DNA of 64,000 bases from an uncultured Holophagaceae bacterium (GTDB lineage Bacteria > Acidobacteriota > Holophagae > Holophagales > Holophagaceae). The stretch spans positions 13,483-77,482 of the forward strand of contig CAIWKE010000034.1 of assembly GCA_903913215.1 (NCBI GenBank), given 5' to 3'. The notes below the pieces were generated by a model, which saw nothing but the letters and a program-made list of their open reading frames with translations, had not been told where the DNA came from and did no database searches. A program made the position numbers and the translations under genes. Shown here piece after piece: positions 9,434-34,869 of the stretch; within the stretch, counting starts at the first letter, position 1; each line of letters starts with the position of its first letter.

Positions 9434-9444
9434 GAGTCACCGCC

Positions 9445-18338: not shown

Positions 18339-18743
18339 TCAGCGCCCCGCCAGCACCCGCAGAAGGTGGGCCTTCACCTCAGCCAGGCGCTCGGGCAGGA
18401 CAGCCACGAAGACCGTGTCATCCCCGGCCAGCGTGCCCATCTGCCCCGCCACGGGCTCAGCATCCAGGAGCAGGCCCAGAGCCTGGGCGAAGCCCGGGGC
18501 CGTCCGCACGACCAGGAGATTCGGTGGGGCCTCCACGATGCGGAGCTCAGGCAGGGTCTGGGGACTCGGCTCCAGGCGACGGTAGCGACCCTGGACCTTC
18601 ACCACCCCCAGCCGCTTCAGGCGACGGGACAGGGTGGACTGGGTCAGCTCCTGCCCCGCCTGGGCCAGATGCGCCAGCAATTCACCCTGATCGGTGATGG
18701 GGGAGGCCTCCAGAAGGCGGAGGATGAGGGCGTCCAGGTCCAT
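18339..18743 (-). CDS. argR: Arginine repressor ArgR
   Basis: N-terminal winged-helix region (QGELLAHLAQAGQELTQSTLSRRLKRLGVVK). C-terminal oligomerisation/Arg-binding region (GTLAGDDTVFV). Divergent from the arg operon. Start taken at the ATG at 18743 (MDLDAL). Confidence 0.8.
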   Translation of the reverse strand: MDLDALILRLLEASPITDQGELLAHLAQAGQELTQSTLSRRLKRLGVVKVQGRYRRLEPSPQTLPELRIVEAPPNLLVVRTAPGFAQALGLLLDAEPVAGQMGTLAGDDTVFVAVLPERLAEVKAHLLRVLAGR

Positions 18744-18769
18744 GCATGAAGTGTGCATGAATTTGCATA
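18743..18769. promoter_or_regulatory. Candidate ArgR operator: three TGCAT motifs phased 10-11 bp apart
   Basis: ATGCATGAAGTGTGCATGAATTTGCATA, with TGCAT at 18743, 18754 and 18764. The core TGCAT-GAAT-TTGCA resembles the ARG-box palindrome TGAAT-W4-ATTCA / Bacillus-type ATGCA variant. Confidence 0.4.
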
Positions 18770-18816
18770 TTTGAACAAGCGCATTACATAAATTACGGAT
18801 GTTACGAGATTTTTTC

Positions 18817-18846
18817 TTGGTGTTTCAATTTTCCATCGCATAATAT
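18817..18846 (+). promoter_or_regulatory. Putative sigma70 promoter of the arg operon (TTGGTG-N18-TAATAT)
   Basis: Hexamers lie in the AT-rich divergent region. An upstream T-tract is present. The -10 element is embedded in the palindrome GCATAATATGC. Confidence 0.4.
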
Positions 18847-18852
18847 GCATTC
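18835..18852. promoter_or_regulatory. Candidate ArgR operator overlapping the -10 element
   Basis: ATCGCATAATATGCATTC is an imperfect palindrome built from GCAT/ATGC half-sites. Confidence 0.35.
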
Positions 18853-18897
18853 TGATGCTCGGGTATGCGCACGCCCGGACTCGCCACAGGATCCCCC

Positions 18898-20040
18898 ATG
18901 AGCTCCGCCCCGACCATTCCCGCCCTGCTCCCCACCTACGCCCCCTATCCTTTCCTGCTGCTGCGCGGTGAGGGTGACCAGGTCTTCGACGACCAGGACC
19001 GGGCCTGGTGGGATTTCTACGGTGGTCACTGCGTCTGCGCCACGGGCCACAGCCACCCGAAGGTGGTGAAGGCCGTGGCCGACCAGGCCGGGTCGCTCTT
19101 GTTCTACTCCGCCGCAGCCGCGCTTCCCGTGCGAGACCAGGCTGCGGAGAAGCTCACCGCCTTCGCGGGCATGGACTCGGTGTTCTTCTGCAACAGTGGC
19201 GCCGAGGCTAACGAGAACGCCTTGAAAATGGCCCTGCTGCTCACGGGGCGCAAGAAGCTGGGGTGCTTCATGGGCGGCTGGCACGGCCGCACCCTGCTGG
19301 CCCTCTCGGTGACGGATGACCCCAAGATCACTCAGCCCTTTGAGGACCAGCTCGTGCCCACCCAGCGCCTGCCCTTCGGCGATCTGGAGGCCCTGGAGGC
19401 GGCGGACTTCTCGGAACTGGCGGGCGTCATTCTTGAACCCATCCAGAGCATGGCGGGGATCAAGACTGCCTCCAAGACCTGGTTCGAGGCCCTCCGCGCC
19501 AAGTGCGACGCCGCGGGCACCCTGCTCATCTTCGACGAGATCCAGACCGGCATGGGCCGCCTGGGAACCCCCTTCGCAGCGCAGTTCTACGGGGTCCGGC
19601 CCGACATGATCACTTCCGCCAAGGGCCTCGCCTCGGGCGTGCCCATGGGCGCTCTGCTGCTCACCGCGGCCGTGGCCTCGGAACTCAAGGGCGGGGATCT
19701 GGGCAGCACCTTTGGTGGCGGCCCCCTGGCCTGTGCGGCCCTGCTGGCCACGGTGGACGTCATCACCAGCGAGGGCCTCATGGCCAACGCCACGGCGGCC
19801 CTGGCCACCCTGCGTAAGGGCCTGGCGGGTTCTGTCGTCACCGAAGTGCTGGGCGAGGGTCTTCTGCTGGGCCTGCGCAGCGCGCACGCCGCTGCCCTCA
19901 AGAAGCACCTGCTGACCCAGCACATCCTTGTGGGTGGTTCCGGCGATCCCACGGTGCTGCGCCTCATGCCGCCCCTGAACGTGAGCCCCGAAGCCCTGGA
20001 GGCCCTGGTGGCCGCCGTTCACGCCTTCGAAGTGCCTTGA
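18898..20040 (+). CDS. argD: N-acyl-ornithine aminotransferase (class III PLP aminotransferase)
   Basis: LLPTYAPYPFLLLRGEGDQVFD, FFCNSGAEANE and IFDEIQTGMGRLG motifs. SD-like AGGA lies 7 nt before the ATG at 18898. Confidence 0.85.
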   Translation: MSSAPTIPALLPTYAPYPFLLLRGEGDQVFDDQDRAWWDFYGGHCVCATGHSHPKVVKAVADQAGSLLFYSAAAALPVRDQAAEKLTAFAGMDSVFFCNSGAEANENALKMALLLTGRKKLGCFMGGWHGRTLLALSVTDDPKITQPFEDQLVPTQRLPFGDLEALEAADFSELAGVILEPIQSMAGIKTASKTWFEALRAKCDAAGTLLIFDEIQTGMGRLGTPFAAQFYGVRPDMITSAKGLASGVPMGALLLTAAVASELKGGDLGSTFGGGPLACAALLATVDVITSEGLMANATAALATLRKGLAGSVVTEVLGEGLLLGLRSAHAAALKKHLLTQHILVGGSGDPTVLRLMPPLNVSPEALEALVAAVHAFEVP

Positions 20041-20085: not shown

Positions 20086-21078
20086 ATGAAGCACTTCACC
20101 CGCATCTCCGACCTGGGCCCCGAGGGGGTCAAGCGCATCCTCGCCATGGCCGCCACCTGGAAGGCCAACCGCCCCGGCGCCATCTTCACGGACCGCATCC
20201 TGGGCATGGTCTTCTTCAACCCCAGCCTGCGCACCCGGGCCAGCTTCGAGGCCGCCATGCTGCGCCACGGCGGCCACGCCATCGTGCTGGAAGTGGGCGC
20301 GGGCACCTGGAAGCTGGAAGACCGCGACGGCGCCATCATGAACGAGGACCGCGCCGAGCACGTGCGCGAGGGCGTGCCCGTCCTGGGTCGGTACGCGGAC
20401 CTGCTGGCTGTGCGGACCTTCAGCCACGGCGATGGGGATGCCATGGACGAGACGGACCCCGTCATCAACGCCTTCCGCCGCTTCTCCACCGTGCCCGTGC
20501 TGAGCATGGAGAGCGCCCGGGAACATCCCCACCAGGGCCTCGCTGATCTGCTCACCATCCAGGAGGCCCACGGCAGCACGAAGGTGCCCGTGACCCTGAC
20601 TTGGGCCCCGCACATCAAGCCCCTGCCCAAGGCCGTACCCAACTCCTTCCTGCTCACGGCCGCAGCCTGCGGCGCCGAGATCCGCGTGGCCCACCCCAAG
20701 GGCTACGAGCTCGCGCCGGAAGTTCGCGCCGAGGCCGAGGCCTATGCCGCCGCCACCGGCGGGAAGATCACCTACACGAACGACCAGGACGCCGCCCTGG
20801 AGGGCAGTGCTGCCGTCTACGCCAAGGCCTGGGGTCCTTCCACCAGCTCCGGCCTCGATGCCGCCCCCATGGCGGATCTGGGCGCCTGGATGCCCACCGC
20901 AGCCCACATGCAGAAGGCCGCCAAAGAGGCCATCTTCACCCACTGCCTCCCCGTGCGCCGCAACCTGGAAGTCCATGACAGCGTCCTCGACGGCCCCTGG
21001 AGCCGCGTCGTCGACGAGGCCGAGAACCGCTTCCACGTGCAGCGGGCCACGATCCACCACCTGCTCACGCAGGACTGA
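20086..21078 (+). CDS. argF': N-acyl-L-ornithine carbamoyltransferase (AOTCase/SOTCase type, not a classical OTCase)
   Basis: Collinear with the Xanthomonas AOTCase and Bacteroides fragilis SOTCase sequences as I recall them: FFNPSLRTR, WKLEDRDGAIM, SMESAREHP, TWAPHIKPLPKAVPNSF, HCLPVRRN, DEAENRFHVQ. Confidence 0.9.
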   Translation: MKHFTRISDLGPEGVKRILAMAATWKANRPGAIFTDRILGMVFFNPSLRTRASFEAAMLRHGGHAIVLEVGAGTWKLEDRDGAIMNEDRAEHVREGVPVLGRYADLLAVRTFSHGDGDAMDETDPVINAFRRFSTVPVLSMESAREHPHQGLADLLTIQEAHGSTKVPVTLTWAPHIKPLPKAVPNSFLLTAAACGAEIRVAHPKGYELAPEVRAEAEAYAAATGGKITYTNDQDAALEGSAAVYAKAWGPSTSSGLDAAPMADLGAWMPTAAHMQKAAKEAIFTHCLPVRRNLEVHDSVLDGPWSRVVDEAENRFHVQRATIHHLLTQD

Positions 21079-21124: not shown

Positions 21125-22033
21125 ATGCCGCTCTCCCCGAACCCCTACGCCGCCCTCAAGGAAGCCTCCCAGTACGTCCGCCTGTTTCGCGGCAAGACCT
21201 TCGTGGTGAAGGTCGGGGGTGATGTCCTCGTGGACCCCAAGATCCGCAAGGCCCTCTGCGAGCAGATCGCCCTGCTCTGGTCCTTCTCCATCCGCGTGGT
21301 GGTGGTCCATGGTGGCGGCGCTGAGCTGGACACCGTCTGCGCCTCCATGAACATCCCCGTGCAGAAGGTGGCTGGACGCCGCATCACCACACCGGAGGTG
21401 CTGGACGCCGCCAAGATGGTCTTCGCTGGGCAGGTGCACATGGACTTGTTGGCCGAATTACAGGCCGCGGGTGTGCCCGCTGTGGGCCTCTCGGGTCTGG
21501 ACGCGGGCCTCGTGAAGGCCACCCGCCGCCCTCCCATCTCTGTCATTCCCGACGGCGCCACGGAGCCCCAGCTGGTCGACTTCGGCCTGGTGGGTGACAT
21601 CGAGTCCGTGGACCCGGCCATCCTCACGCACCTGCTGGAGGGCGGCTACCTGCCCGTGGTGGCGCCCCTCTCCGGCGGCGAGGACGGCACCATCTACAAC
21701 ACCAATGCCGATACCATCGCCGCCAGCCTGGCCTCGGCCCTCTGCGCTGAGAAACTGTTCTTCCTGCTGTCGGTGCCCGGGCTCCTGAAGGATGTGAAGA
21801 AAAGTTCCTCCCTGGTGCCCCACGCCACGCTGGACGAACTGGCTGCCCTGGAGGCCAAGGGCGTCATCAGCGGCGGCATGCGCCCCAAGGTGGCGGCCGT
21901 GAAGGCGGCCCTCCTGGGTGGCGCTCAGAGCGTGCACCTGGTGAGCGGCATCGTGGCCGATGCCCTCCTGGCCGAGGTCTTCACCAACGAAGGCAGCGGC
22001 ACCATGATCGTCGCCAACGCGCCCGTGGCCTGA
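21125..22033 (+). CDS. argB: N-acyl-glutamate kinase
   Basis: Amino-acid kinase fold: GKTFVVKVGG, VVVHGGG, NTNADT. Confidence 0.9.
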   Translation: MPLSPNPYAALKEASQYVRLFRGKTFVVKVGGDVLVDPKIRKALCEQIALLWSFSIRVVVVHGGGAELDTVCASMNIPVQKVAGRRITTPEVLDAAKMVFAGQVHMDLLAELQAAGVPAVGLSGLDAGLVKATRRPPISVIPDGATEPQLVDFGLVGDIESVDPAILTHLLEGGYLPVVAPLSGGEDGTIYNTNADTIAASLASALCAEKLFFLLSVPGLLKDVKKSSSLVPHATLDELAALEAKGVISGGMRPKVAAVKAALLGGAQSVHLVSGIVADALLAEVFTNEGSGTMIVANAPVA

Positions 22034-23106
22034 TGAATCCCGCGGCCCTCCTCACCCGCCTCGTGGGCACCGCCAGTGTGTCCGGCACCGAAGGCCCCAT
22101 CGCGGACCTGGTGCAGGACCTCATCGCGGCCGAGGGCTTCGAAGTCCACCGCTCCGCGAACAACCTCTGGTTCAGCATCGGCGCCAAAGCCGGTAATGAG
22201 AGTGGCGCGCGCCTGCTGCTCAACTCCCACCTGGACACGGTGCCTCCCTGTGCGGGCTGGGAGGGCGATCCCTTCACGCCGGCCTGGCACGGCCCACGGC
22301 TCCAGGGCCTGGGCGCCAACGACGCCAAGGGCTGCGTGGCAGCCATCCTCCTCGCGGCCTTCGAGCTTGCCAAGCAGCCCCTGGCGGGCGAGGTCGTAGT
22401 CGCCCTCACGGCGGAAGAAGAAACCGGGGGCCAGGGCATCGCCACCATCCTCGATCAGCTGGGGCCCTTGGACGGAGCCGTGGTGGGTGAGCCCACGGGC
22501 CTGCGGGTCTGCGCCGCCCAGCGGGGAATGCTCCTCTTGAAGTGCACGGCCCGGGGCCAGAGCGGCCACGTGGCCAACGCCCAGATGCTGGGCGCCGAGA
22601 ACGCCATCCACAAGGCCGCCCGGGACATCAGCCGCGTAGCGGCCATGTCGTTCCCGACCCACCCGCTGCTGGGCTCCCAGAGCGCCCAGGTGACCCAGGT
22701 CCAGGGCGGTCTGCGGCGCAACCAGGTGCCGGATGCCTGCGAGTTTTTCATCGACCTCCGCACCAGCCCCGAGCAGGACCACGAGGCCCTGGTCGCGGAG
22801 TTCCAGCGCCAGTTGGAGAGCGAGGTCATCGCCCACTCCAAGCGCTACCTGCCCAAGGGCACAGACGCCAACCACCCCATCGTCCGCGCCGCCCTCCTGG
22901 CTGCGGGCAAGGCAGGGCCCGTAGGCTCGGGCACCACCTCCGACTGGGCCTTCCTGGGCGGAATTCCGGCTGTGAAGGTTGGCCCCGGCGACACCTTCCG
23001 CAGCCACGCCCCCAACGAGTACCTCACCCTGCCGGAGCTGGAGGCGGGGGCCGCCTTCTATGCGAAAGTGGCCACGGACTTCTTCCGCTTGCAGGCGCCC
23101 CGATGA
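22033..23106 (+). CDS. M20-family deacylase (ArgE/DapE-like; probable N-acyl-citrulline/ornithine deacylase)
   Basis: M20 metal-ligand motifs (LLLNSHLDTVP, GANDAKG, AEEETGG). Sits between argB and argH with overlapping stop/start codons. Confidence 0.75.
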   Translation: MNPAALLTRLVGTASVSGTEGPIADLVQDLIAAEGFEVHRSANNLWFSIGAKAGNESGARLLLNSHLDTVPPCAGWEGDPFTPAWHGPRLQGLGANDAKGCVAAILLAAFELAKQPLAGEVVVALTAEEETGGQGIATILDQLGPLDGAVVGEPTGLRVCAAQRGMLLLKCTARGQSGHVANAQMLGAENAIHKAARDISRVAAMSFPTHPLLGSQSAQVTQVQGGLRRNQVPDACEFFIDLRTSPEQDHEALVAEFQRQLESEVIAHSKRYLPKGTDANHPIVRAALLAAGKAGPVGSGTTSDWAFLGGIPAVKVGPGDTFRSHAPNEYLTLPELEAGAAFYAKVATDFFRLQAPR

Positions 23107-24461
23107 AACCCACGCCGACCACGCTATGGGCCAAGGATGTGCCCCTGGATGCAGCCATGCACCGGTTCACCGTGGGGGAGGATCCCGACACCGATCTCTC
23201 CCTGGTGGCTTGGGATGCCCTGGGCAGCGCTGCCCACGCCACCATGCTGGGCGCCACGGGCCTCCTGGCCCCGGCAGATGTGAAAGCCCTGGTGCAGGAG
23301 CTGCGGCACATCGCTGAGCTGGCCAAGCAGGGCGAGTTCCCCATTCCCGTGGCCATGGAGGACTGCCACACGGCCATCGAGGCCCACCTGACCCAGGTGC
23401 TCGGTCCCACCGGGGCCCGCATCCACCTGGGTCGCTCCCGCAATGACCAGGTGATCCTGGCCCTGCGCCTCTTCCTCCGGGACGCCCTGCTGCGCCTGGG
23501 CCTGCGGGTGGCGGACCTGGCCGGGGCCTTCTTGACCTTCGCCCAGGCGAACCAGGACACCCCCCTGCCCGGCTACACCCACCTGCGCCGCGCCATGCCC
23601 AGCACCTTCGGGCTCTGGGCTGCGGCCTTCGCCGAGGGCCTGCTGGAAGAACTGGAGGCCCTGCAGGGGGTCTACGGCCGGCTGGACCGCTGCCCGCTGG
23701 GCTCCGCTGCGGGCTTCGGCGTGCCCCTGCCCATCGACCGCGCCCTCACGGCCCGCCTCCTGGGTTTCTCAAAGGTCCAGCGCAGCCCCATCGACGTGCA
23801 GAACAGCCGGGGCCGTCACGAGACCGCCGTGCTGCAGTGGGCGGCCTCCGCTGGGGGCGTGGTGGAGAAGTTCCTCTGGGATGTGTCCCTCTACAGCACC
23901 GAGGAGTTCGGCTTCTTGAAGCTGCCGGACGCCTTCACCACGGGCTCCAGCATCATGCCCCAAAAGAAAAACCCCGACGTGGTGGAGCTGGCCCGGGGCC
24001 GCTGCCGCGAGCTGCGCGGCTCTGCGGGCCTCATCGAGCAGATCGCCGCGGGCCTGCCCTCCAGCTACCACCGGGACCTGCAGCTTCTCAAGCGGCCACT
24101 CGTGCTGGCCCTGCGGAACGCCGAGGATCTCTTCACGGTGCTTGCACCCCTGCTGCCCGCCCTCCAGATCCAGGTCGAGGCCACCGCCGCCGCCTCCACG
24201 GACGAGCTCTACGCCGCCCACCAGGCCTACGTCTATGTGCAGCAGGGCCTGCCCTTCCGCGAGGCCTACCGGAAGGTGGCCCAGCAGCTCCAGGACGGCA
24301 GCTTCGCACCGGACCGCGCCGCCCTCACCGCCACCCACCTCGGCGGCGCCGGCAACCTGGCCCTGGACGAACTGGCCAGTGACCTGGGCAAGGCAAAGAG
24401 CTGGATAGAAGCTAAGCAGGGCATCCATACCCATGCGGAGGCTGCGTTATGGTGCAACTGA
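23103..24461 (+). CDS. argH: Argininosuccinate lyase
   Basis: Fumarate-lyase signature GSSIMPQKKNPD. The track ORF 22542..24461 was trimmed to the ATG at 23103 (MKPTPTTLWAK), which overlaps the upstream stop (ATGA). Confidence 0.9.
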   Translation: MKPTPTTLWAKDVPLDAAMHRFTVGEDPDTDLSLVAWDALGSAAHATMLGATGLLAPADVKALVQELRHIAELAKQGEFPIPVAMEDCHTAIEAHLTQVLGPTGARIHLGRSRNDQVILALRLFLRDALLRLGLRVADLAGAFLTFAQANQDTPLPGYTHLRRAMPSTFGLWAAAFAEGLLEELEALQGVYGRLDRCPLGSAAGFGVPLPIDRALTARLLGFSKVQRSPIDVQNSRGRHETAVLQWAASAGGVVEKFLWDVSLYSTEEFGFLKLPDAFTTGSSIMPQKKNPDVVELARGRCRELRGSAGLIEQIAAGLPSSYHRDLQLLKRPLVLALRNAEDLFTVLAPLLPALQIQVEATAAASTDELYAAHQAYVYVQQGLPFREAYRKVAQQLQDGSFAPDRAALTATHLGGAGNLALDELASDLGKAKSWIEAKQGIHTHAEAALWCN

Positions 24462-24582: not shown

Positions 24583-25770
24583 ATGAACAAACTCGCGGTA
24601 CTCGCCTTTTCGGGCGGTCTGGACACCTCCTTCTGTGTGCTCTACCTGAAGGAGCAGGGCTACAACGTGGCCACCGTGACCGTGAATACGGGCGGCTTCT
24701 CCCCCACTGAACTGAAGCGCATCGAGGAGATCGCGCCCAAGTTGGGGGCCATCAGCCACACCACCGTGGACGCCCGCGCGGGGCTCTTCGAGGGCTACCT
24801 TCGCTACCTGGTCTACGGCAACGTGCTGCGGGGCCAGATGTATCCCCTGTCCGTCTCCGCTGAGCGGGTCTGCCAGGCCCGGGCCGTGGCGGAGCTGGCC
24901 AAGGACATGGGCGCCACCGCCATCGCCCACGGCTCCACGGGAGCAGGCAACGACCAGGTGCGCTTCGACGTGGCCTTCCGCGCCCTGGCGCCGGACCTGG
25001 AGTTGCTCACACCCATCCGCGACCTGGGCCTCAGCCGGGCTGAGGAGATGGACTACTGCGCCCAGCGGGGGCTGGTCTTCCCAGAGAAGACCCGGGACTA
25101 CTCCATCAACGAGGGCATGTGGGGCACCAGCATCGGCGGCCGGGAGACCCTGGACCCCTGGAGCACCTTGCCTGAGGCGGCCTTCCCCGGCGGCACCATC
25201 CCCAGCCTCACGCCCAAGACCCTGGTCGTGAGCTTCGAGAAGGGTGTGCCCCTGGCCCTGGACGGCATCTCCATGGATCCCGTGACCATCATCGCCCAGC
25301 TCAATGCCCTGGGTCGCCCCTACGGCATCGGCCGGGGCGTGCACCTGGGCGACACCATCCTGGGTATCAAGGGCCGCGTGGGCTTCGAGGCCCCCGCCGC
25401 CCACCTGCTCATCGGCGCCCACCGGGAGCTGGAGAAGCTGGTCCTTTCCGGCAAGCAGCTCTTCTGGAAGGAGTCCCTGGGCAACCTCTACGGCAGCCTG
25501 CTCCATGAGGGCCACTTCTTTGATCCCCTGGCCCGCGATCTGGAGGCTTTCCTGGAGTCCAGCCAGGACTGCGTCACCGGCGAGGTACGCCTCACCCTGC
25601 ACCCCCGCAGCTTCGTCGTGGAAGGCGTGCAGTCACCCTACAGCCTCATGGATCCCCGCATCGCCACCTACGGCGAAGCCAACAAGCTCTGGAGCGGGGC
25701 CGAAGCCGCAGGGTTCGCCAAAATTTTCGGTGTTCAACAGACCCTCACACTGAAGGCCAAAAACAACTGA
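24583..25770 (+). CDS. argG: Argininosuccinate synthase
   Basis: AFSGGLDTS ATP-pyrophosphatase motif and GSTGAGNDQVRF. ATG at 24583. Confidence 0.95.
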   Translation: MNKLAVLAFSGGLDTSFCVLYLKEQGYNVATVTVNTGGFSPTELKRIEEIAPKLGAISHTTVDARAGLFEGYLRYLVYGNVLRGQMYPLSVSAERVCQARAVAELAKDMGATAIAHGSTGAGNDQVRFDVAFRALAPDLELLTPIRDLGLSRAEEMDYCAQRGLVFPEKTRDYSINEGMWGTSIGGRETLDPWSTLPEAAFPGGTIPSLTPKTLVVSFEKGVPLALDGISMDPVTIIAQLNALGRPYGIGRGVHLGDTILGIKGRVGFEAPAAHLLIGAHRELEKLVLSGKQLFWKESLGNLYGSLLHEGHFFDPLARDLEAFLESSQDCVTGEVRLTLHPRSFVVEGVQSPYSLMDPRIATYGEANKLWSGAEAAGFAKIFGVQQTLTLKAKNN

Positions 25771-25869: not shown

Positions 25870-26922
25870 ATGCGCATCCATGTCGACAAGCTCGCTTCGG
25901 TCACCCGCAACCTGCGGCTGGGGCGCACGCTCACGCTGTCCCCGGACATCCTTCTTGAGGAAGGGTCGGTCATCGCCTGCCGCATCCGGGGCGAGAAGAC
26001 CACTTACAACCAGCTGGAGGATCCGCATGGGCGCATGAGCACCCTCCATGACGGGGACATTCTCGTGGGCGCCCTGGGCCATCGCAATGCCCTCCAGGGC
26101 TACGAGGGCGTCATGCCCACCTCGCTCAAGCCTGGCGACATTGTGAACCTCCTGAACATGGGCGGCGTTATCGGCAAGTGCCTGTCTCACAACCCGGACG
26201 TGGGCAAGCCCTTCGACATGGAAGTGCTGGGCCAGGTCCTGGTCTTCCCCGAGTTCCAGTCCCGGGCGGGCCAGCCCGCCCACGTCCGCATGGGCGCCCT
26301 CAAGGGCACGGGCCTCGTGGCCCACTGCCCCGTCATCTACGTGGCGGGCACCTGCATGAACGCGGGCAAGACCGCCGCCGCCTGCGCCACCGTGCGCCAA
26401 CTCAGCCGCGCCGGCTACCGCGTGGGTGCCTGCAAGCTCACGGGTGTGTCGCTCATGCGCGACGCCCTGGCCATGCGCGACTACGGCGCCGAGGTGGCCC
26501 TGGACTTCACGGATGGAGGCATTGTCTGCACCGATGCGGGCAGTGCCGCAGGCGTCTCCCACATCATTTTTTCAGAGCTGGCCTCCCACGGCGTGGACGT
26601 CATCGTCGCTGAGACGGGCGACGGCATCATGGGCGAGTACGGCGTCCAGGCCATCCTCCAGGATCCAGACCTCATGGGTCTCAGCGGCTGCTTCATCCTC
26701 TGCGCCAACGACCCCGTGGGTGCCGCGGGCGGCGTGGCCCACCTGAAGTCCGAGTTCGGCATCCAGACGGACCTCATCGCGGGTCCCGCCACGGACAACC
26801 GCGTGGGGGAACGCTTCGTGGCCACCCTGGGCCTTCCCGCCCGCAACGCCCGCGCCGACGCCGACGCCCTCGGCAAGTTCGTGCTCGACAAGGTCGAGCC
26901 TCGGATCGGCGCGAAGGTCTAA
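25870..26922 (+). CDS. Uncharacterised two-domain protein: N-terminal beta-rich domain + C-terminal DTBS/CobQ/DUF1611-type P-loop domain
   Basis: 350-aa ORF co-directional with the arg genes. G160-TCMNA-GKT168 (G-x5-GKT), VDVIVAETGDG (hhhhE-x-G-x-G), ILCANDPVGAAGG. Confidence 0.7.
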   Translation: MRIHVDKLASVTRNLRLGRTLTLSPDILLEEGSVIACRIRGEKTTYNQLEDPHGRMSTLHDGDILVGALGHRNALQGYEGVMPTSLKPGDIVNLLNMGGVIGKCLSHNPDVGKPFDMEVLGQVLVFPEFQSRAGQPAHVRMGALKGTGLVAHCPVIYVAGTCMNAGKTAAACATVRQLSRAGYRVGACKLTGVSLMRDALAMRDYGAEVALDFTDGGIVCTDAGSAAGVSHIIFSELASHGVDVIVAETGDGIMGEYGVQAILQDPDLMGLSGCFILCANDPVGAAGGVAHLKSEFGIQTDLIAGPATDNRVGERFVATLGLPARNARADADALGKFVLDKVEPRIGAKV

Positions 26923-26930
26923 AAAGCAGT

Positions 26931-27040
26931 TTAAACCGCAAAGAGCGCAGAGGCCGCAGAGGTTCATTCCTAAGAACCAAGCACCCGATGCCCTTGTTGT
27001 TGCTGCTCTTCTCTGCGCCCTCTGCGTCCTCTGCGGTTAA
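26931..27040. repeat. Intercistronic hairpin element C (arms = 3 x 9-nt ..CGCAGAG unit)
   Basis: 26931-26962 pairs with 27011-27040: about 26 of 30 positions pair with one bulge, and the loop is 48 nt. Flanked by A5 on the left and T8 on the right. Confidence 0.8.
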
Positions 27041-27058
27041 TTTTTTTTAGAGATTCCC

Positions 27059-28057
27059 ATGACCCAGGTTGATGTCCTGATCCTCGGCGCGTCGGGCTAC
27101 GGCGGGGGGGAGCTGCTGCGCTGGCTCTCGACCCACCCTGCGGTGAAGACACTGCGCGGCACGGCCCGGACCCATGCGGGTAAGCCCTTCCACGCCCTGC
27201 ACCCGAACCTGCGCGGCCTAGTGGAGGGCAGCTTCGAGGCCACGCCAGACTGGGCGGCCCTGGCCCAGAGCGAGGCCCCGGTGATCTTCTCAGCCCTGCC
27301 CCACGGGGAGCTGGGCAAGCTCTGGCCCGAGCTGGAAGCCGCAGGCGGAGCCCATGGCCTCTTGGAGCGGCTCACAGTCATCGACCTCTCCGCGGACTTC
27401 CGCCTGGATCCCACCTGGGTCTATGGCCTGGTGGACTGGCAGCCTGAGCGCATGACGGGCGCCAAGCGCATCGCCAACCCTGGCTGCTTCGCCACGGCCC
27501 TGCAGCTGGCCCTGCTGCCACTCGCCGAGTGGCAGCCGGCCTTCGTGGCAGTCACGGCGGCCACGGGTTCTTCGGGATCCGGCGCGGCGCCTTCGGACAC
27601 CACCCACCACCCCACCCGCGCCAATGACTTCCGCGCCTACAAGATGTTGGGTCACCAGCATGAAGCCGAGGTGCTACGCACCCTGGCCGGCGCGGGCTGG
27701 GCGGCCCCCCTCAGCTTCGTGCCCCAGAGTGCGCCCATGGTGCGGGGAATCTTCGCCACGGCTCAGTTCCCGCTGCCGGCGGGCATGGACGCCGCCGCCC
27801 TGCGGGCCCACTACGAGGCGTTTTATCAAGGCAGGTTCTTCGTGCGCTTCGTCGACGGCTCCCCCCGCGTGGCGGCCACTACGGGGAGCGCCTTCGCGGA
27901 CCTCGGCTTCGCCGCCCGCCATGGCCACGGCGCTGTGCTGGTGGCCCTGGACAACCTCGGCAAGGGTATGGCCGCCCAGGCCGTGCAGAACCTCAACCTC
28001 AGCCTAGGCCTGCCGGAGTGGACGGGACTGCGGGTGGCGGGGGGCTGGCCGGTTTAG
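27059..28057 (+). CDS. argC: N-acyl-gamma-glutamyl-phosphate reductase
   Basis: ILGASGYGGGELLR Rossmann motif and the catalytic-Cys motif NPGCFATA. Confidence 0.9.
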   Translation: MTQVDVLILGASGYGGGELLRWLSTHPAVKTLRGTARTHAGKPFHALHPNLRGLVEGSFEATPDWAALAQSEAPVIFSALPHGELGKLWPELEAAGGAHGLLERLTVIDLSADFRLDPTWVYGLVDWQPERMTGAKRIANPGCFATALQLALLPLAEWQPAFVAVTAATGSSGSGAAPSDTTHHPTRANDFRAYKMLGHQHEAEVLRTLAGAGWAAPLSFVPQSAPMVRGIFATAQFPLPAGMDAAALRAHYEAFYQGRFFVRFVDGSPRVAATTGSAFADLGFAARHGHGAVLVALDNLGKGMAAQAVQNLNLSLGLPEWTGLRVAGGWPV

Positions 28058-28141
28058 ATCTCGACCATCGGCGACCCATAGATCCCTTAATAGACAATAC
28101 TTCCGGTTGTGGGATGATGATTGACCTTTCCCGGAGTGTCT

Positions 28142-29515
28142 ATGAATCCATCCCTGCTCACCCGTGCGGCCCTGGACCAGTTCGCTGCTGAGAACCGGGC
28201 GGCCTTCGAGGCGGAGCTGAAAACCCTCGTGGAAATCCCCAGCATCAGCGCAGACCCGGCCCGGCAGGGGGACATCCGGCGCTGCGCCGAAGCGGCCCGC
28301 AGCCTCTTCGAGCGCCACGGCGGCAAGGCCGAGATTCTCGAAACCAGCGGCAATCCCCTGGTCCACGGCTGGTTTGGCGAGGATCCCAGTCAGCCCATCA
28401 TCACGGTCTACAACCACATGGACGTGCAGCCCGCCAATGAGCCCGAGTGGACGGCGGAGCCCTTCACCTTCGTGGTGGACGGGGACACCTACCGGGGCCG
28501 GGGCAGCACGGACGACAAGGGTCCGGCGGTCACCGCCCTCTTCGGCGCCCTGGCCGCACGCCGCGCGGGTGTGCCCCTCAACATCCACTTCCTCTGGGAA
28601 CTGGAAGAAGAGATCGGCTCCCCCAGCTTTGAGGGTGGCCTGAATCGCCACAAGGACCGCCTGAAGACCGATGCCATCGTGGTGAGCGACACGGTCTGGA
28701 TCACCCGGGGCAAGCCCAGCACTCCCGCAGGTCTGCGGGGCCTCAAAGGCTTCCGCCTGACGTTGGAGACCGCAGACCACGACCTGCACAGCGGCGTGGT
28801 GGGCGGTGCGGCCCGCAACCCCCTGGCGGAGCTCATCAAGGTGGTGGCCGCCATGATGGACGGCGAGACCGGCAAGGTGAAGATCCCCGGCTTCTACGAC
28901 GAGGTCGTGAAGCCCTCCAAGCAGGAACTGGAGGAGTGGGCCAACGCGGGCTTCAGCGTGGAGACCTTCAAGAAGGATCACATGATCACCGGCATGCGCA
29001 CCGAGGATCCCCTCAAGGTGATGAAGCGTGTGTGGGGCCGACCCACCATGGAAGTCCACGGCGTCGTGGGCGGCTACACGGGCCCCGGCATCAAGAGTGC
29101 CGTGCCCCCCCGGGCCGAGGTAAAGATGAGCTGCCGCCTGGTGCCGGACATGGATGAGCACAAGACCATCGAGCGCATCCGCACCTTCGTGAACCGGAAC
29201 TTCCCCGATGTGCAGTTTCACGAGGAGCACGGCCTGGCCCCCTTCAAGGGCCACGTCACGGGCCCCTACGCCGAGGCCATCAAGGACGCCTACAAGTTCG
29301 CCTTCGATGCCCCCTGCTCCTTCACCCGCGAGGGCGGCAGCATCGGCGCCGTGAAGACCATGGAGGACCTCCTGGGCTGCCAGGTCTTCTTCCTGGGCCT
29401 CAGCCTCCCCAGCCATGGCTACCACGCCCCCAACGAGAACTACGACTGGGAGCAGGCCAGCGGTGGCATGGCGGCCTTCGCTCACTACTTCGAGACCGTG
29501 AGCGGGATCAAGTAG
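28142..29515 (+). CDS. M20-family dipeptidase
   Basis: YNHMDVQPA, GRGSTDDKGP and WELEEEIGS metal-ligand motifs. ATG at 28142. Confidence 0.85.
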   Translation: MNPSLLTRAALDQFAAENRAAFEAELKTLVEIPSISADPARQGDIRRCAEAARSLFERHGGKAEILETSGNPLVHGWFGEDPSQPIITVYNHMDVQPANEPEWTAEPFTFVVDGDTYRGRGSTDDKGPAVTALFGALAARRAGVPLNIHFLWELEEEIGSPSFEGGLNRHKDRLKTDAIVVSDTVWITRGKPSTPAGLRGLKGFRLTLETADHDLHSGVVGGAARNPLAELIKVVAAMMDGETGKVKIPGFYDEVVKPSKQELEEWANAGFSVETFKKDHMITGMRTEDPLKVMKRVWGRPTMEVHGVVGGYTGPGIKSAVPPRAEVKMSCRLVPDMDEHKTIERIRTFVNRNFPDVQFHEEHGLAPFKGHVTGPYAEAIKDAYKFAFDAPCSFTREGGSIGAVKTMEDLLGCQVFFLGLSLPSHGYHAPNENYDWEQASGGMAAFAHYFETVSGIK

Positions 29516-29531
29516 GGTTCATGACTCTGCG

Positions 29532-29562
29532 CAGAAACGCCGGCCAGGGGCCGGCGTTTCTG
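29532..29562. terminator. Terminator-like hairpin between convergent genes
   Basis: CAGAAACGCCGGCC-AGGG-GCCGGCGTTTCTG. There is no clear U-tract. Confidence 0.45.
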
Positions 29563-29573
29563 TATTCGGTTGC

Positions 29574-30602
29574 CTACCAGAGCGGCTGCATGGGGGTTTC
29601 CTGGAAGACCGGTGCCCGCCCTGAGGGCCTACCGTTCCCATCTTGGCTGGAGAGGCGCAGGATACCCAGATAGGGCGCGGCGCTGGGGTCATAGAGCACG
29701 GTGATGCTGCCGCCCCGGCCCGGACTCCCGCTCCAACCATCACTTCCACTTGAGCCATCGCTGCCGCTGGAGCCACTGGGGGAACCCGACCCCCCGAACC
29801 CACCTCGACCACCCCGCCCCCCGCGGCCCCCGGATCCGCCCGCGCCTCCATCCGCCTTCACCGTTAGATAGCCCCCTTGGGGGTCCACCAGAAACCGATC
29901 AATCCGGTCACCACCTCGCACGCTCACCTGTAGCAGGGGATGGGGGCCAGGCCTGAAAGCCACGTTCACCAGGAGGGATGGCGCGTCGCCACCGGGCCCT
30001 CCATTGTCACCGTCGCTGCCACGGCCTCCATCGGAACCATTGCCTCCCGGGGAGGGGTTGTTGAGGTCGTTGGAACCTGAGCTGCCACTCATGCCATCAG
30101 ATCCAGCCATTCCGTCCATGCCCGAGAAGCCGGGGCTTCCGGAAAAGTCAGCGTGGAAGCCCCAGTCGTACCTCACGGGGATATCCAACTCCGTTCGTAG
30201 TTCCGGGTGACTGGGCACAGTGATGATCAGGTGGGGGGTCCGCCCATCGCTGAGGCGAGGGTCCGAGGGCAGCGAAACCACGCCCTTCGGACTAACCCCC
30301 GCCACCGTGCTAGAAAGCTGGAGATCCTCCCAGAGAACCTTGCCTCCAGGACTCCCCTCAGTGTGCAAAGTAGCACCGTCCGGCTGCACCAAAGTTACGA
30401 CGAGGGCAGCCTTCCCACTGGGTGCCATACCTCCCTCCGGTAGGGTGGCGGATAGGGCGCTGATGGAGGTCTTCTCCAGACGGACCCGCCACCCCATCCA
30501 AACTTGGATTGGTCTGCAACTGAGGCCTATGAGCGCCAGCAACATGCCAACCAGACCCTGCAGGATTCGGCCCAGGCTCGAGACAGGTGGGGATGCGCGC
30601 AT
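29574..30602 (-). CDS. Secreted/anchored Gly-rich protein with two G-X-Y tracts, function unknown
   Basis: N-terminal hydrophobic segment ILQGLVGMLLALIGLSC. Beta-strand-like segments are interrupted by GSPGFSGMDGMAGSDGMSGSSGSN..GGNGSDGGRGSDGDNGGPGGD and by GGAGGSGGRGGRGGRGGFGGSGSPSGSSGSDGSSGSDGWSGSPGRGG. Confidence 0.6.
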   Translation of the reverse strand: MRASPPVSSLGRILQGLVGMLLALIGLSCRPIQVWMGWRVRLEKTSISALSATLPEGGMAPSGKAALVVTLVQPDGATLHTEGSPGGKVLWEDLQLSSTVAGVSPKGVVSLPSDPRLSDGRTPHLIITVPSHPELRTELDIPVRYDWGFHADFSGSPGFSGMDGMAGSDGMSGSSGSNDLNNPSPGGNGSDGGRGSDGDNGGPGGDAPSLLVNVAFRPGPHPLLQVSVRGGDRIDRFLVDPQGGYLTVKADGGAGGSGGRGGRGGRGGFGGSGSPSGSSGSDGSSGSDGWSGSPGRGGSITVLYDPSAAPYLGILRLSSQDGNGRPSGRAPVFQETPMQPLW

Positions 30603-30779
30603 GCTGGCCTCACTTGGTGGCAATGATCTAGCTCCCGTTGAGCTTCTTTACCAAGGGAGGGGCATCTGGCGTATTAGGTTGAGCACCATTCCATCGAACT
30701 GAAGGTCTGACCCGCGTTTCCTGGAAGCTCAATCTCGCCAGGTCCTCAATCACCAGCAGGCTCTACCCTGCTGACTGTA

Positions 30780-31150
30780 GGACATGGACAAGCGGAAAAT
30801 CCATCAACCAGATCCGCACCTTCGTGAATCTGAACCACCCCGATGTGCAGTTCCACGAGGAGCACGGCCTGGCCCCCTTTCAAGGGCCACGTCACGGGCC
30901 CTACGCTGAGGCAATCAAGGACGCCTACAAGTTCGCCTTCGACGCCCCCTGCTCCTTCACCCGCGAGGGCGGCAGCATCGGCGCCGTGAAGACCATGGAG
31001 GACCTCCTGGGCTGCCAGGCCTTCTTCCTGGGTCTTAGCCTCCCCAGCCACGGCTACCACGCCCTCAACGAGAACTACGACTGGGAGCAGGCCAGCGGCG
31101 GCATGGCCGCCTTCGCCCACTATTTCGATACGGTGAGTGGGATCAAGTAG
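30780..31150 (+). pseudogene. Truncated, frameshifted duplicate of the 3' end of the M20 dipeptidase gene
   Basis: 98 of 108 aligned residues are identical to the C-terminus of 28142..29515 (hand count). A compensated +1/-1 indel pair gives APFQGPRHGPY where the intact copy has APFKGHVTGPY. The first ~40 nt are out of frame. About 355 N-terminal codons are missing. Confidence 0.8.
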
Positions 31151-31159
31151 GGTTAGCTT

Positions 31160-31203
31160 CCTTTTCAGAAACGCCGGCCAAGGAACCGGCGTTTCTGAAA
31201 AGG
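31160..31203. terminator. Terminator-like hairpin (diverged duplicate of the one at 29532)
   Basis: CCTTTTCAGAAACGCCGG-CCAAGGAA-CCGGCGTTTCTGAAAAGG. Confidence 0.5.
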
Positions 31204-31330: not shown

Positions 31331-34300
31331 CTATTTTATCTGCTGGATCATCACGGTAAAGGCGTAGGGGGCGGAGGAGTGCCCGTTGTTATAATTGCCC
31401 AAATTGTCTCCACCTGTGCCTGTGTAAACCACCTTGACCAGATCGCCAGTGTCCGCTGAGAACATCACGGTGTGACTGTTGGGCGCGAATCCGCTGGCCG
31501 GAGTGACAAACGCGAAAGCCCCTGCGGCGATTAGTGTATTGTTCTTCCGCACCTCCCCAGTGAAAAGAGGGGGGTTGTTACCGCCCTCAGAGATGCTGAT
31601 CGCCTGGGTGTTGACCTGCACCGTTAGGATGTATATCCCCGTCGTCGGCATCGTATAGACGCCAACATTGGAAGCAATACCTGCATTGACTACCGTGTTA
31701 CCTGCTACTAAATCGTTGGTACCAATCCTGACCGAACCGATGGCTGCATCCTGGACCGCTGCCATTGAAGTGCCGCCGGCGGGGGCTAGGCTCAGCCAGG
31801 CACCATTCCCACCATTTGCTGCTGCACTCCAGGTCAGGACCTGACCATCCTGGTTGGTGTTGGCCGTATGGTCCGCAGGTGGCGCCAGGGCCAGGAGCGA
31901 GCTGCCCTTGATGTTCACGTCGTTGGCGTAGATCGTGCTCCAACGGTTGGTGGCGGAACCAAGTGTGGTCGCGTTGTTGGCACCCGGTACCACTTCGGCA
32001 AGCGCATTGACCCATCCAAACGAGCCATTGTTGCCGATGACCATCTGATCGGCCTTGGTGGTCGCTGCTTGGGCGCCAATGGCGATCTGGTTATCGGCGG
32101 TGGGGGCGGTTGTGGTTGCACCGTAACCTAGGAAAATCCCATGGCTTCCAGATGACAAGGGATTGCCCGCACTTCGGCCTACGGCCACGTTTCCAACCCC
32201 AGTCACCGGATCCACGCTGCCCTGCAGCGCGTAGGTTCCAATCGCGACATTTTCGTTTCCGCCCGTGCTCGCCTGTTGGAGCGCCTGATAGCCCACGGCC
32301 ACATTGCTGGAAACGGCACCATCCCCGCCCTGCAGGGTGGCCTGGCCGATGGCGACATTCTGGGCACCGGTGAGTGCATAGCCGGCCACTTCTCCCATCG
32401 CAACGTTGCTACCGCCAGTGGTATTGCTCCTGAGCGCGAAGTGCCCGACACCCACATTCCACTTCCCCGTTGTGTTCGCATAAAGGGCATTGCTGCCAAG
32501 ACCCACGTTTTCTTTGCCTGTAGTATTGGCATTCATCACGTTGATACCGACCGCGGTGTTGTCCGAACCGGATTGATAGATGCTTCCAAGTGAACTTGCT
32601 CCGATGGCCACATTGCCGGTACCGGAATCGCCGAACAAATTTCCCTGCAAGGCGTTGTACCCCATGGCCACGTTGTAGTTGCCCGTGCTCAGGAACATCA
32701 TCGCGTAACCGCCCACGGCGGTATTGTTCTGCCCGCTCGTGAGGGAACTCAGCGCATAGGTTCCAAGCCCCGTGCTATTCACAACACTGCTCGTCATGGT
32801 GAAGTTACCGGCATTCAAGCCAAGGAACGTATTACCTGCACCAGAGCCATTGCCTGACACGCCGCCGAAAGAATGGAGAAAGGGATAGAGCGTTCCACCG
32901 GTGAAGATCTGCACCGCCGAGGATGCTCCCGTGCTGTCTGGAAGTCTGAGGTTGTGCGCAATGGCCACATAGCCCGAATTCGAGTTGGTGATGTCGTTGC
33001 CGCTGGTCGTCCAGGGGCCGCCACCACCAGCGGTAGCCACCCAACTCCGCGCACCAGCCGCGGTCGACGAGAGCACATATCCATCAGCCCCGGGATTTCC
33101 TAAGACAGGCTCCTTCCCCGCCACAGCCGAGGTCACGAAGGCCGTAGTGGCGATCTGGGTGGTGTTGGTGCCACCGGTGGCCGTGGGCGCCGCTGGAGTG
33201 CCTGTGAATGTGGGTGAAGCAAGCGGGGCCTTGACTGCCAGGCCAGAGGCCACAAAGGCTGTCGTGGCGATCTGTGTGGTGTTGGTGCCACCGGTCGCCG
33301 TGGGTGCCGCTGGAGTGCCTGTGAAGGTGGGTGAAGCCAGCGGTGCCTTGCCGTTGAAGGCCGTCCAGTCCGCCGCGCTCAGCGCACCACGATTGGAGGC
33401 CGAGGCGGTCGGCACATTGAGCGTGATGACCGGCGTCGAGGTGCCCGTGGCCACGCTGGAGGACAGGTCTGCTCCTGTGGTTCCGAGCGTCAAGGCCGCC
33501 ACACTGGTGACCGTGCCGCTGCCCTTGGCGTTGAAGGTGGCGAAATCCGAGGCCGCGAGGTAGCCATCCACACTGGAGGTGGCCTTCGTGATGCCAAGGG
33601 TTCCGCTGCCCGTGATCGGGCCACCCGTTAGGGGGCCGGAGGTGGCCACGCTGGTGACCGTACCCGTGCTGCCACCCGCAGCGGTCACTGGTGCCCAGGC
33701 GCTGCCATCGAACTGGTAGAGCCCTGGGGTGCCATCGGACTGGTAGACCAGCAGGCCTGCGGTGGGCGTGAGAATGGCGGCGCGCTGGACAGCAGTCATG
33801 CGCGGGGGCAGAAAGCCCTTGGTGCTACTGGTGAGGTCCAGCAGGGCGCTGGCATCCGGTGTGGCCGTCCCCAACCCCAGCGAACCTGTGGTGAAGACGA
33901 CATTCGAACCCGACAGGGTGAGGGGGCTTGCGCCCGCCGGTCCCATGGCACCCGTGGCGCCGGCAGGCCCCTGGGCGCCAATCACCCCTGGCAGCCCCTG
34001 GGGGCCCACCGATCCCGTGGCTCCTGCCGGGCCTGTGGCACCTGTGGCGCCGGCCGGACCTTGGCCCCCGGTCACACCCGGCAGCCCCTGGGGGCCCACA
34101 GATCCGGTGGCTCCCGTCGGCCCAGCGGGTCCCTGAGGGCCTGTTGCACCGCTGGGTCCGGCAACCCCCTGGGGCCCAGTCGCACCTGTGGCACCCGTCG
34201 CGCCAGTGGCTCCGGTGGCTCCGGTCGGACCGGCGGGTCCCTGGGTGCCGGCCACGGATCCCGCCACCCACTTGGTGCCGTTGTAGACCAGGGCCTGACC

Positions 34301-34810
34301 AGAGGTGGGGGGCGTGGTGGCTAGGTCGAGGGGAATGCCCTGCAGCTTCAGCACCAGGGTCTGGTTCTGGGTACCGCCCAGGTCACCGCTGAAGGAGCCG
34401 GCCAGAGTCCATGCGCTGATGGCCTGGAAGGCGGGAACGATATCGATGTCAGGGGCGAGGGCCTGACCGGATACCGTGACGTGGAGCTTCAGGCCCGCCT
34501 TGCCGAGCGCGGCTGCTGGTAGGGTTGGCATGCCGGTAGCACCCAGCACCACGGAGTAAAGACCCTCGCTCACGGTCAGGGTCTGCGCACCGGAGTTCCA
34601 CAGCTCCGTGCTGGTGCTGTCGAGGATACTGAAGGTGAAGCTGCGCACGCCGCTGACAGCTGTAGCACCCTCCAGCAGCCGTCCTTGATAGGCCAGCGTG
34701 GGCAGCGGTGCGACATCCGCCGCAGCTTCTGCAACCTGGGCCTGGAGGACGGGAACGCCAACGCAGGCAATGAGGGTGGCGATGGTGGGTGTGAGGAAGG
34801 CACGGCGCAT
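31331..34810 (-). CDS. Large secreted fibre protein: collagen-like GXY tract + tail-fibre repeats + YadA-head-like repeats + C-terminal C1q/TNF-like domain
   Basis: Start taken at the ATG at 34810 ([26 protein letters not shown] signal peptide). Modules are described in the findings. Residue numbers follow the 1180-codon track ORF. Confidence 0.85.
33134..33349 (-). repeat. Tandem 39-codon repeat inside the fibre gene
   Basis: [33 protein letters not shown] occurs twice (residues 509-541 and 548-580). The DNA copies are nearly identical. Confidence 0.9.
33932..34240 (-). repeat. Collagen-like G-X-Y tract (~34 uninterrupted triplets, includes a 30-codon tandem duplication)
   Basis: Residues 212-314: [56 protein letters not shown]...GAMGPAG. 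Confidence 0.9.
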
Positions 34811-34869
34811 GGGGTTCACCTTGGACGAAGCGTGGAGAAGGCAGGAATGGAAGGATCGGTAATAGAAGG

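Follow-up and report, generated by a model that had tools for sequence, protein, structure and literature searches.

A candidate N-succinyl-L-glutamate synthase in the arginine gene cluster of a Holophagaceae bacterium

We examined a 64-kb stretch of contig CAIWKE010000034.1 from an uncultured Holophagaceae bacterium (hereafter the window), focusing on a gene of 350 codons, here called X (25870-26922, plus strand, ATG start), that lies within a cluster of arginine biosynthesis (arg) genes. Window proteins share ~90% identity with those of Geothrix species (Holophagaceae, Acidobacteriota). We consider it probable, with moderate confidence, that X is an N-succinyl-L-glutamate synthase that catalyzes the first committed step of a succinyl variant of the arginine pathway; this confidence attaches to the role of the protein and not to its acyl donor. 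An earlier sequence-only reading of the same DNA had cast X as a non-orthologous N-acyl-glutamate synthase. That assignment is the best-supported one, given a single gap in the pathway, linkage to arg genes across phyla down to 29% identity and a published prediction for relatives of X, but the group transferred would be succinyl and not acetyl. The further suggestion that this would be a previously undescribed first step did not hold up, since the same prediction for the same family was already public.

A cluster that lacks only its first step

In the window, a divergent argR precedes argD-argF'-argB-M20-argH-argG-X-argC, and Pfam and NCBIfam searches of the neighboring products bear out this layout of eight co-directional genes as it was first read. 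None of the 10 cluster products has a GNAT, ArgA or ArgJ domain in Pfam or NCBIfam, nor does any of 40 further open reading frames (ORFs) of the window (50 scanned in total), in agreement with the absence of these enzymes noted previously. The argB gene (21125-22033, plus strand; TIGR00761 E 1e-63) encodes a short N-acylglutamate kinase (302 aa) whose only domain is AA_kinase, without a fused acetyltransferase domain. Gaps within the cluster are at most 137 bp, so there is no space for a further gene. X has no AA_kinase, GNAT or ArgJ (PF01960) domain detectable with Pfam or NCBIfam. It is a real and strongly conserved gene, and its GC content at third codon positions (0.89) is in line with that of the adjoining genes. 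We propose X as the synthase because it is the sole unassigned gene in a cluster from which only step 1 is missing.

A protein related to X has been given this role before. Price et al. predicted, without experiments, that Steroidobacter ACG33_RS14135 (UniProt A0A127FCT3) is an alternative N-succinylglutamate synthase, and GapMind lists it as a predicted ArgA (bioRxiv 10.1101/2024.10.14.618325). According to the same preprint, Steroidobacter denitrificans grows in minimal medium without an ArgA homolog, and ACG33_RS14135 is a hypothetical protein in an arg cluster that has no argE-type deacylase. Its homologs are "virtually always" in arg operons and never occur together with homologs of the P. 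aeruginosa-type ArgA (bioRxiv 10.1101/2024.10.14.618325). X is 47% identical to a protein (P0385) named "[Steroidobacteraceae bacterium]" over 341 of its 350 aa (E 4e-94). A subfamily 48% identical to X (P0125/P0343), which NCBI also names "[Steroidobacteraceae bacterium]", has a gene context (locus L086) without argE that matches the Steroidobacter of the preprint. Because of this full-length identity to Steroidobacteraceae proteins in a matching arg context, we place X in the already predicted ACG33_RS14135 family; the link runs through the Steroidobacteraceae relatives and not through the type sequence. The core idea is therefore already public as a prediction, and the window adds confirmation in another phylum together with sharper mechanistic hypotheses.

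X belongs to a large family. At E<=1e-3 its homologs group into no fewer than 6,907 clusters (90% identity); the top 120 of these, all at least 64% identical to X, derive from Holophagaceae, Myxococcaceae and Gammaproteobacteria. When 1.84 billion representatives were scanned exhaustively with HMMER, 1,389 clusters (50% identity) had E<=1e-3 and 146 had E<=1e-30. We sampled the neighborhoods of 80 genome loci from Holophagaceae, Myxococcaceae, gammaproteobacterial metagenome-assembled genomes (MAGs) and Solibacteraceae, plus those of more distant relatives (92 loci overall). X lies in an arg cluster in 80 of the 80 genome loci, between argG and argC wherever the contig extends far enough. The order argR / argD argF' argB (M20) argH argG X argC is found in Holophagaceae, some other Acidobacteriota and gammaproteobacterial MAGs, the last of these without the M20 gene, and Myxococcaceae have the identical order minus argD. 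In the contexts annotated with Pfam (Stigmatella and a Rhodanobacteraceae MAG), ArgB is short and there is no GNAT. The linkage of X homologs to arg clusters, which the sequence-only reading had proposed to check for clusters without argJ, is borne out in these loci.

Among distant relatives (29-48% identity) the arg linkage is kept and the gene order altered: argG X argC argD argF' argB M20 GNAT argH in L084 (41% identity), argR X argC argD argF' argB in L085 (46%), argR argG X argC argD argF' argB argH in L086 (48%), and carA carB argG argF' X argC argB [AstE-like domain fused to ArgH] argD in L089 (29%). The sole constant neighbor of an arg-linked X is argC, directly downstream wherever the downstream gene can be identified, and the two genes frequently abut or overlap by 4 bp. 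In the window the spacer between them is 136 bp (26923-27058), compared with 0-3 bp in many other Geothrix loci, and it contains weak terminator-like hairpins (27022-27036, plus strand; 26939-26926, minus strand).

Two homologs were found outside arg clusters. The first, in the region 6984-9923 of locus L088, is an X-like gene with 33% identity that is flanked by a gene for an AstE/DoeB-like (AstE/AspA-family) deacylase and one for a glutamate ligase of the RimK family. Its surroundings are archaeal (ribosomal S27e/S24e, Spt4, Rpb7, eIF2-gamma), and this gene set may represent a different N-acyl amino acid system. The second is a full-length homolog (32% identity; 8001-9047 of L091) without arg neighbors; its contig of 3.4 Mb is sparsely populated with intron-containing genes. 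Other genes on this contig encode LysM, ankyrin, LPMO_10 and a secreted lipase, and it appears to belong to a eukaryotic host, possibly a fungal one.

The identity of the acyl group is indicated by argF' (20086-21078, plus strand; NF003384 390 bits, cutoff 288), which encodes an acylornithine carbamoyltransferase. The acetylornithine carbamoyltransferase (AOTCase) of X. campestris has Glu92, Asn185 and Lys302, where the N-succinylornithine enzyme (SOTCase) has A/S/P/V/Q, P and V/I/E, respectively (review, PMC4581275). The window ArgF' has Ala90, Pro181 and Glu295 at the aligned positions; the AOTCase numbering was checked through the structure entries of the E92A, E92S, E92V and K302E mutants. 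None of the 63 ArgF' proteins encoded beside X homologs has Glu at position 92, where A occurs in 52, P in 6, Q in 3, T in 1 and V in 1; all have P at position 185, and E, V or A occupies position 302. Similarly, among 70 ArgF' encoded beside ACG33_RS14135 homologs, position 92 is A, P, S or V in 90% and Gln in two (bioRxiv 10.1101/2024.10.14.618325). Enzymes of succinyl type also occur beside distant X members. These are the AstE/AspA-family deacylase of the archaeal locus L088 and, in L089 (10869-13076), a 735-aa protein in which argininosuccinate lyase is fused to a succinylglutamate desuccinylase-like (AstE/AspA-family) domain, in a cluster that has no M20 deacylase. The fusion is a candidate N-succinylcitrulline desuccinylase with a different fold. 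Judged by these residues and neighbors, the window pathway most probably uses N-succinyl and not N-acetyl intermediates. The SOTCase signature of ArgF' together with the AstE-like domain of L089 thus points to N-succinyl-L-glutamate synthase as the missing enzyme. An acetyl pathway as in Xanthomonas was rejected on the succinyl ArgF' signature; Xanthomonas has an ArgA/B fusion (PMC1865377).

In the proposed pathway, X would N-succinylate L-glutamate to N-succinyl-L-glutamate in place of ArgA, of ArgJ or of ArgA2, the GNAT of Bacteroidetes. ArgB, ArgC, ArgD, the SOTCase-type ArgF', an M20 desuccinylase, ArgG and ArgH would act on the product in turn, and the ArgR-linked cluster encodes all of them. 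The M20 ArgE/DapE-type deacylase of the window (22033-23106, plus strand; Peptidase_M20 and M20_dimer, TIGR01892 E 1.8e-48) is a probable N-succinylcitrulline desuccinylase, a substrate we infer from this pathway. The single gap, the deep synteny, the succinyl signature and the anti-correlation with ArgA reported in the preprint are our reasons for favoring the synthase role, which is plausible and, as noted, already proposed for the family.

Several observations weigh against this assignment. The case for the role of X rests on genomic association, and our literature search found no biochemical or genetic test of any member of the X family and no experimental paper after the preprint. Cluster L084 carries, in addition to X, a 167-aa GNAT resembling short forms of N-acetylglutamate synthase (NAGS) between the M20 gene and argH (14258-14761; NF005840 103 bits, ArgH(A) C-domain E 2e-19), so X can have a second candidate for step 1 beside it. 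Mutual exclusion of X and other synthases is therefore not absolute; a GNAT of this kind was found neither in the window nor in any of the other 91 loci. DgcN (7XRJ), a glutamate-acylating protein discussed below, was missing from the 47 PDB sequences that a profile search gave at E<=10 and from the best 50 Foldseek matches of X. Finally, the invariant adjacency of argC could mean a partnership with ArgC or ArgB.

If so, X would be an accessory P-loop NTPase acting with ArgC and/or ArgB, for instance one that channels or protects the labile N-acyl-glutamyl phosphate or that assembles or regulates a complex, and step 1 would be performed by an unrecognized enzyme encoded elsewhere. The position of argC directly downstream in every arg-linked locus with an identifiable downstream gene, despite reordering, fits such a partnership, as does the NAGS-like GNAT alongside X in L084. 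Moreover, the SIMIBI relatives retrieved by Foldseek (MeaB, HypB, ParA, SRP/FtsY) are often chaperones or regulators and not enzymes. We nevertheless regard an accessory function as quite unlikely. It would give no account of step 1 in S. denitrificans and its relatives, organisms that combine arginine-free growth with the absence of an ArgA homolog, and the archaeal and eukaryote-like homologs exist without argC. The G-x5-GKT loop and the equivalent of BioD K37 in X (see below) are typical of BioD-type synthetases and not of G3E/ParA switches, and the N-terminal domain has many invariant charged residues, which fits the binding of small molecules. A role as G3E metallochaperone for the M20 enzyme was likewise set aside, since the P-loop type and the K37 equivalent indicate a BioD-type synthetase instead.

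Domain architecture and candidate chemistry

The AlphaFold2 model of X (32-sequence alignment; predicted local distance difference test score, pLDDT, 86.4; predicted template modeling score, pTM, 0.82) consists of two domains. The N-terminal domain (residues 1 to ~145; 25870-26304, plus strand), recognized as beta-rich in the first reading, is all-beta in the models. Modeled alone (pLDDT 84.5) and searched with Foldseek against the PDB, it gave nothing significant (best E 0.74, TM-score <0.35). Its low-confidence loops (residues 46-56 and 73-75) hold the invariant motifs YNxLED..GR and GHRNAL, which we read as putative substrate-binding loops. The C-terminal domain (residues ~150-350; 26317-26919, plus strand) is an alpha/beta P-loop domain, BioD-like (SIMIBI class) by Foldseek, profile search and hhalign. 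It contains an extended Walker A loop, G160-TCMNA-GKT168 (G-x5-GKT; 26347-26373, plus strand), as well as V242-DVIVAETGDG-252 and I276-LCANDPVGAAGG-288. These motifs are present at the residues first reported for them, and the majority of their residues are invariant across 32 homologs, including G160, T161, C162, M163, N164, G166, K167 and T168 of the Walker A loop. In a more diverse alignment of 59 sequences (mean identity 34%), G166, K167 and K189 are still invariant, and conservation of T168, D198 and E248 is 90% or more.

Dethiobiotin synthetase (BioD) is the nearest detectable relative of this domain. Foldseek of X against the PDB returned matches to the C-terminal domain only, the best being 1DTS (dethiobiotin synthetase; E 4.4e-6, target TM-score 0.53), followed by SRP/FtsY, HypB, MeaB and ParA of the SIMIBI class. 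BioD was likewise the best match in profile searches of PDB sequences (close alignment, E 0.026; 59-sequence diverse alignment, E 3e-4 for Mycobacterium tuberculosis BioD), and across single-sequence and profile searches the only matches were P-loop matches to BioD, FtsY and MobB. The structural comparison foreseen by the sequence-only reading thus succeeded for the C-terminal domain and failed to find a relative for the N-terminal one. An hhalign comparison of the diverse alignment with E. coli BioD (sequence verified against 1A82) gave a probability of 71.5% and E 3.6e-5 and covers X residues 156-257 only. It maps K167/T168 of X to K15/T16 of BioD, K189 to K37, D198 to D54 and E248 to E115. 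Established structural work on BioD assigns to these residues the binding of the phosphates, Mg2+ (with D54 and E115 as ligands) and the carbamate/anhydride intermediate. Pfam gave nothing for X at E<0.01, with weak matches at P-loop level only (DUF1611_C at E 0.021, MobB, CbiA, AAA_26). An identity as MobB or CobQ/CbiA was rejected because these matches are below threshold and confined to the P-loop.

By analogy with these folds, the C-terminal domain would bind a nucleotide-containing co-substrate, and the conserved loops of the N-terminal domain, with their many invariant Arg, Lys, Asp and Glu residues, would bind two polycarboxylate substrates. The roles of individual residues and the donor are predictions from this likeness. 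If the donor is succinyl-CoA, the P-loop would hold the CoA phosphates.

Alternatively, X might be an ATP-dependent succinate:L-glutamate ligase, independent of CoA, in which the BioD-like domain would phosphorylate succinate and the resulting succinyl phosphate would be attacked by the alpha-amine of glutamate. Dethiobiotin synthetase, CobQ and CTP synthase perform the same acyl-phosphate-type ligase chemistry. This mechanism would suit a protein whose nearest detectable relative is BioD by three methods (profile search, hhalign and Foldseek) and in which the BioD catalytic set (K167/T168, K189, D198, E248) can be mapped and is conserved, with K167 and K189 invariant. ArgX/LysX is a precedent for the ATP-dependent N-acylation of glutamate by a carboxylate. 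However, the known characterized glutamate N-acylators of the arginine pathway all use acyl-CoA or transacylation, with the exception of the ATP-grasp ArgX in the LysW carrier-protein route, and DgcN does so too. The hhalign alignment spans residues 156-257 only, and conservation of the P-loop does not discriminate between the two donors, since DgcN probably carries the same extended loop yet uses acetyl-CoA (Yu et al. 2023, as cited in the preprint). In absolute terms we view a ligase as less likely than not. To our knowledge, DgcN is the only characterized P-loop enzyme that N-acylates glutamate. On analogy with DgcN and the other N-acylglutamate synthases, we lean slightly toward succinyl-CoA as the donor; succinate plus ATP is almost as probable, given the BioD-like catalytic set.

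The likeness to DgcN does not extend to orthology. The sequence-only reading had drawn a kinship between the P-loop domain of X and both BioD and the DUF1611 family; the first relationship stands, and the second proved nominal. X scores 14.7 bits against DUF1611_C (PF07755; cutoff 25, E 0.021) over 40 residues at the P-loop (151-190), distant family members likewise fall below the cutoff, and DUF1611_N (PF17396) has no match in X even at E<=10. The family is currently annotated as "hypothetical" or as "DUF1611 / D-glutamate N-acetyltransferase-like". The latter label, which we consider misleading, and the weak DUF1611_C match are what would favor X as a DgcN orthologue, that is, a D-glutamate N-acetyltransferase of D-amino-acid catabolism; the names "DUF1611 domain-containing" and "D-glutamate N-acetyltransferase-like" are those carried by myxobacterial homologs. 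A search of the literature on DUF1611, DgcN and "D-glutamate N-acetyltransferase" found nothing concerning the X family. Against orthology stand the sub-threshold match, the absence of DUF1611_N, an all-beta N-terminal domain without a PDB match, the failure of the profile search to retrieve 7XRJ, and neighbors that are arg genes in all 80 loci and never the racemase or deacetylase of the dgc cluster. X therefore falls outside the canonical DUF1611/DgcN proteins, and we reject this candidate as effectively refuted by gene context and domain architecture. For the Steroidobacter protein, a weak Foldseek similarity to DgcN (7XRJ) has been reported (E 1.4e-7 at a root mean square deviation of 5.6 A; bioRxiv 10.1101/2024.10.14.618325).

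Some X-bearing clusters raise a second question. No deacylase gene (M20 or AstE-like) was found in five of them (L069, L070, L079, L082 and L086, gammaproteobacterial or Steroidobacteraceae), so the acylcitrulline hydrolase step is also without an assigned gene there. An ArgJ-like transacylase, moving succinyl from N-succinylcitrulline (or N-succinylornithine) to glutamate, would fill the missing synthase step and, in these lineages, the missing deacylase step at once. It would also account for X being the sole extra gene in these five clusters and in S. denitrificans, all of which are without an argE-type deacylase and ArgA. We judge a transacylase to be very improbable, as an M20 or AstE-like deacylase is kept beside X in Geothrix, myxobacterial and other clusters, a Mg-nucleotide site (the invariant P-loop Lys and the K37 equivalent) would be purposeless in an energy-neutral transfer, and a priming synthase would still be required. 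We know of no P-loop enzyme that performs ArgJ-like transacylation.

Synthesis of N-succinyl-L-glutamate by X, if true, would close the last gap in arginine biosynthesis in Holophagaceae, Myxococcaceae and some other Acidobacteriota as well as in Steroidobacteraceae and other Gammaproteobacteria, and auxotrophies could be predicted better from genomic and metagenomic data. Besides the GNATs and ArgJ, the committing N-acylation step would gain a third, unrelated fold. Should X prove to be a ligase, arginine synthesis would have a first-step enzyme of a new class, with substrates held by a beta-rich domain that has no detectable solved relative. Succinate set free by the desuccinylase at the citrulline step would then be joined to glutamate again, with one ATP spent, in a closed "succinate shuttle", and the archaeal and eukaryote-like homologs would make other N-acyl acidic amino acids.

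The remaining cluster genes and the flanking DNA

The other genes of the cluster are assigned as follows. The arginine repressor gene argR (18339-18758, minus strand) has Pfam Arg_repressor and Arg_repressor_C domains (TIGR01529 E 7.5e-23). Between it and argD is an AT-rich intergenic region (18759-18864) in which TGCAT/ATGCA half-sites are repeated as TGCAT...ATGCA palindromes, for example GTGCATGAATTTGCATAT and CGCATAATATGCATTC. From the sequence, we interpret these palindromes as putative ARG-box operators and promoters; one sigma-70-like match lies on the minus strand of this spacer (18828-18799). On the plus strand follow argD (18865-20040), for an N-acyl(succinyl)ornithine aminotransferase (Aminotran_3 E 2.6e-86; TIGR00707 E 1.5e-98), and, beyond the genes described above, argH (23106-24461), for argininosuccinate lyase (TIGR00838 292 bits, cutoff 279.5). 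The start of argH is approximate, near 23106 within a longer ORF (22542-24461). The argG gene, for argininosuccinate synthase (TIGR00032 317 bits, cutoff 268), occupies 24583-25770; its start is most likely 24583 (MNKLAV...) and not the ORF start at 24541. Finally, argC (27059-28057) is identified by TIGR01850 (281.7 bits, cutoff 233.6) and by synteny.

Downstream of argC, a direct repeat of ~417 bp (90.6% identity) occurs at 29146-29562 and 30780-31197. The 3' end of an M20 dipeptidase gene (28121-29515) is copied in it as a 108-aa ORF (30824-31150), and the repeat copies flank a minus-strand ORF (29574-30623) that encodes a Gly/Ser-rich product of 349 aa without a Pfam match. The arrangement at 29146-31197 looks like an insertion or a partial gene duplication. 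The dipeptidase gene of several other Geothrix loci is more distant from argC, or is not within the 10-kb flank. Next to the repeat, on the minus strand (31331-34873), lies an ORF of 1180 aa with collagen-like runs of Gly-X-Y triplets and repeated motifs, resembling a tail fibre or adhesin. The GC content at 30-32 kb is 0.59, compared with ~0.67 elsewhere in the window, and this part of the sequence may be acquired DNA.

Comparison with known first-step enzymes and P-loop relatives

The closest parallel to X is the ACG33_RS14135 family itself. Both are hypothetical proteins encoded in argR/B/C/D/F'/G/H clusters, both occur with an ArgF' that is non-Glu at position 92, and both have the same predicted role. 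Unlike its Steroidobacter counterpart, X comes from the phylum Acidobacteriota (Geothrix) and lies at the operon end as argG-X-argC, and the Geothrix cluster retains an M20 deacylase that Steroidobacter does not have.

The pathway as a whole resembles the N-succinylornithine arginine pathway of Bacteroides, as the window ArgF' has the residues of the succinyl enzyme at 92, 185 and 302. In Bacteroidetes, the GNAT ArgA2 (BT3761) is an N-succinylglutamate synthase with genetic support, in a pathway with the SOTCase ArgF' (PMC9026213). ArgA2 and X share the proposed reaction and the succinyl-type pathway and differ in fold (GNAT as opposed to a P-loop plus a beta domain); fitness data exist for ArgA2 only. 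ArgA, the Xanthomonas ArgA/B fusion, ArgJ and the short S-NAGS occupy the same pathway position as that proposed for X; they make N-acetylglutamate, and X has none of the AA_kinase, GNAT or ArgJ domains. The Xanthomonas operon encodes the ArgA/B fusion and a 203-aa GNAT (PMC1865377) and has no X in that place. M. xanthus has been reported to be without an ornithine acetyltransferase (PMC1865377), and relatives of M. xanthus carry X, which speaks in favor of the proposed role.

Among P-loop proteins, BioD (1DTS, 1A82, 3FGN) shares with the C-terminal domain of X a common fold, the G-x5-GK[ST] loop and equivalents of K15/T16/K37/D54/E115, at ~18-24% identity over ~100-220 residues. X scores 11.3 bits against the BioD-like Pfam family AAA_26 (PF13500), under the cutoff of 27. 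It differs from BioD in the extra beta-rich N-terminal domain of 145 residues and in its arg rather than bio gene context, and the substrates must differ. DgcN is described as a D-glutamate N-acetyltransferase with acetyl-CoA as donor (Yu et al. 2023, ISME J 17:537, as cited in bioRxiv 10.1101/2024.10.14.618325). Like X, DgcN is a P-loop-containing protein; it N-acylates glutamate, and X has a weak match to its DUF1611_C domain. DgcN differs from X in acting on D-Glu with an acetyl-CoA donor, in serving a catabolic pathway and in its gene context.

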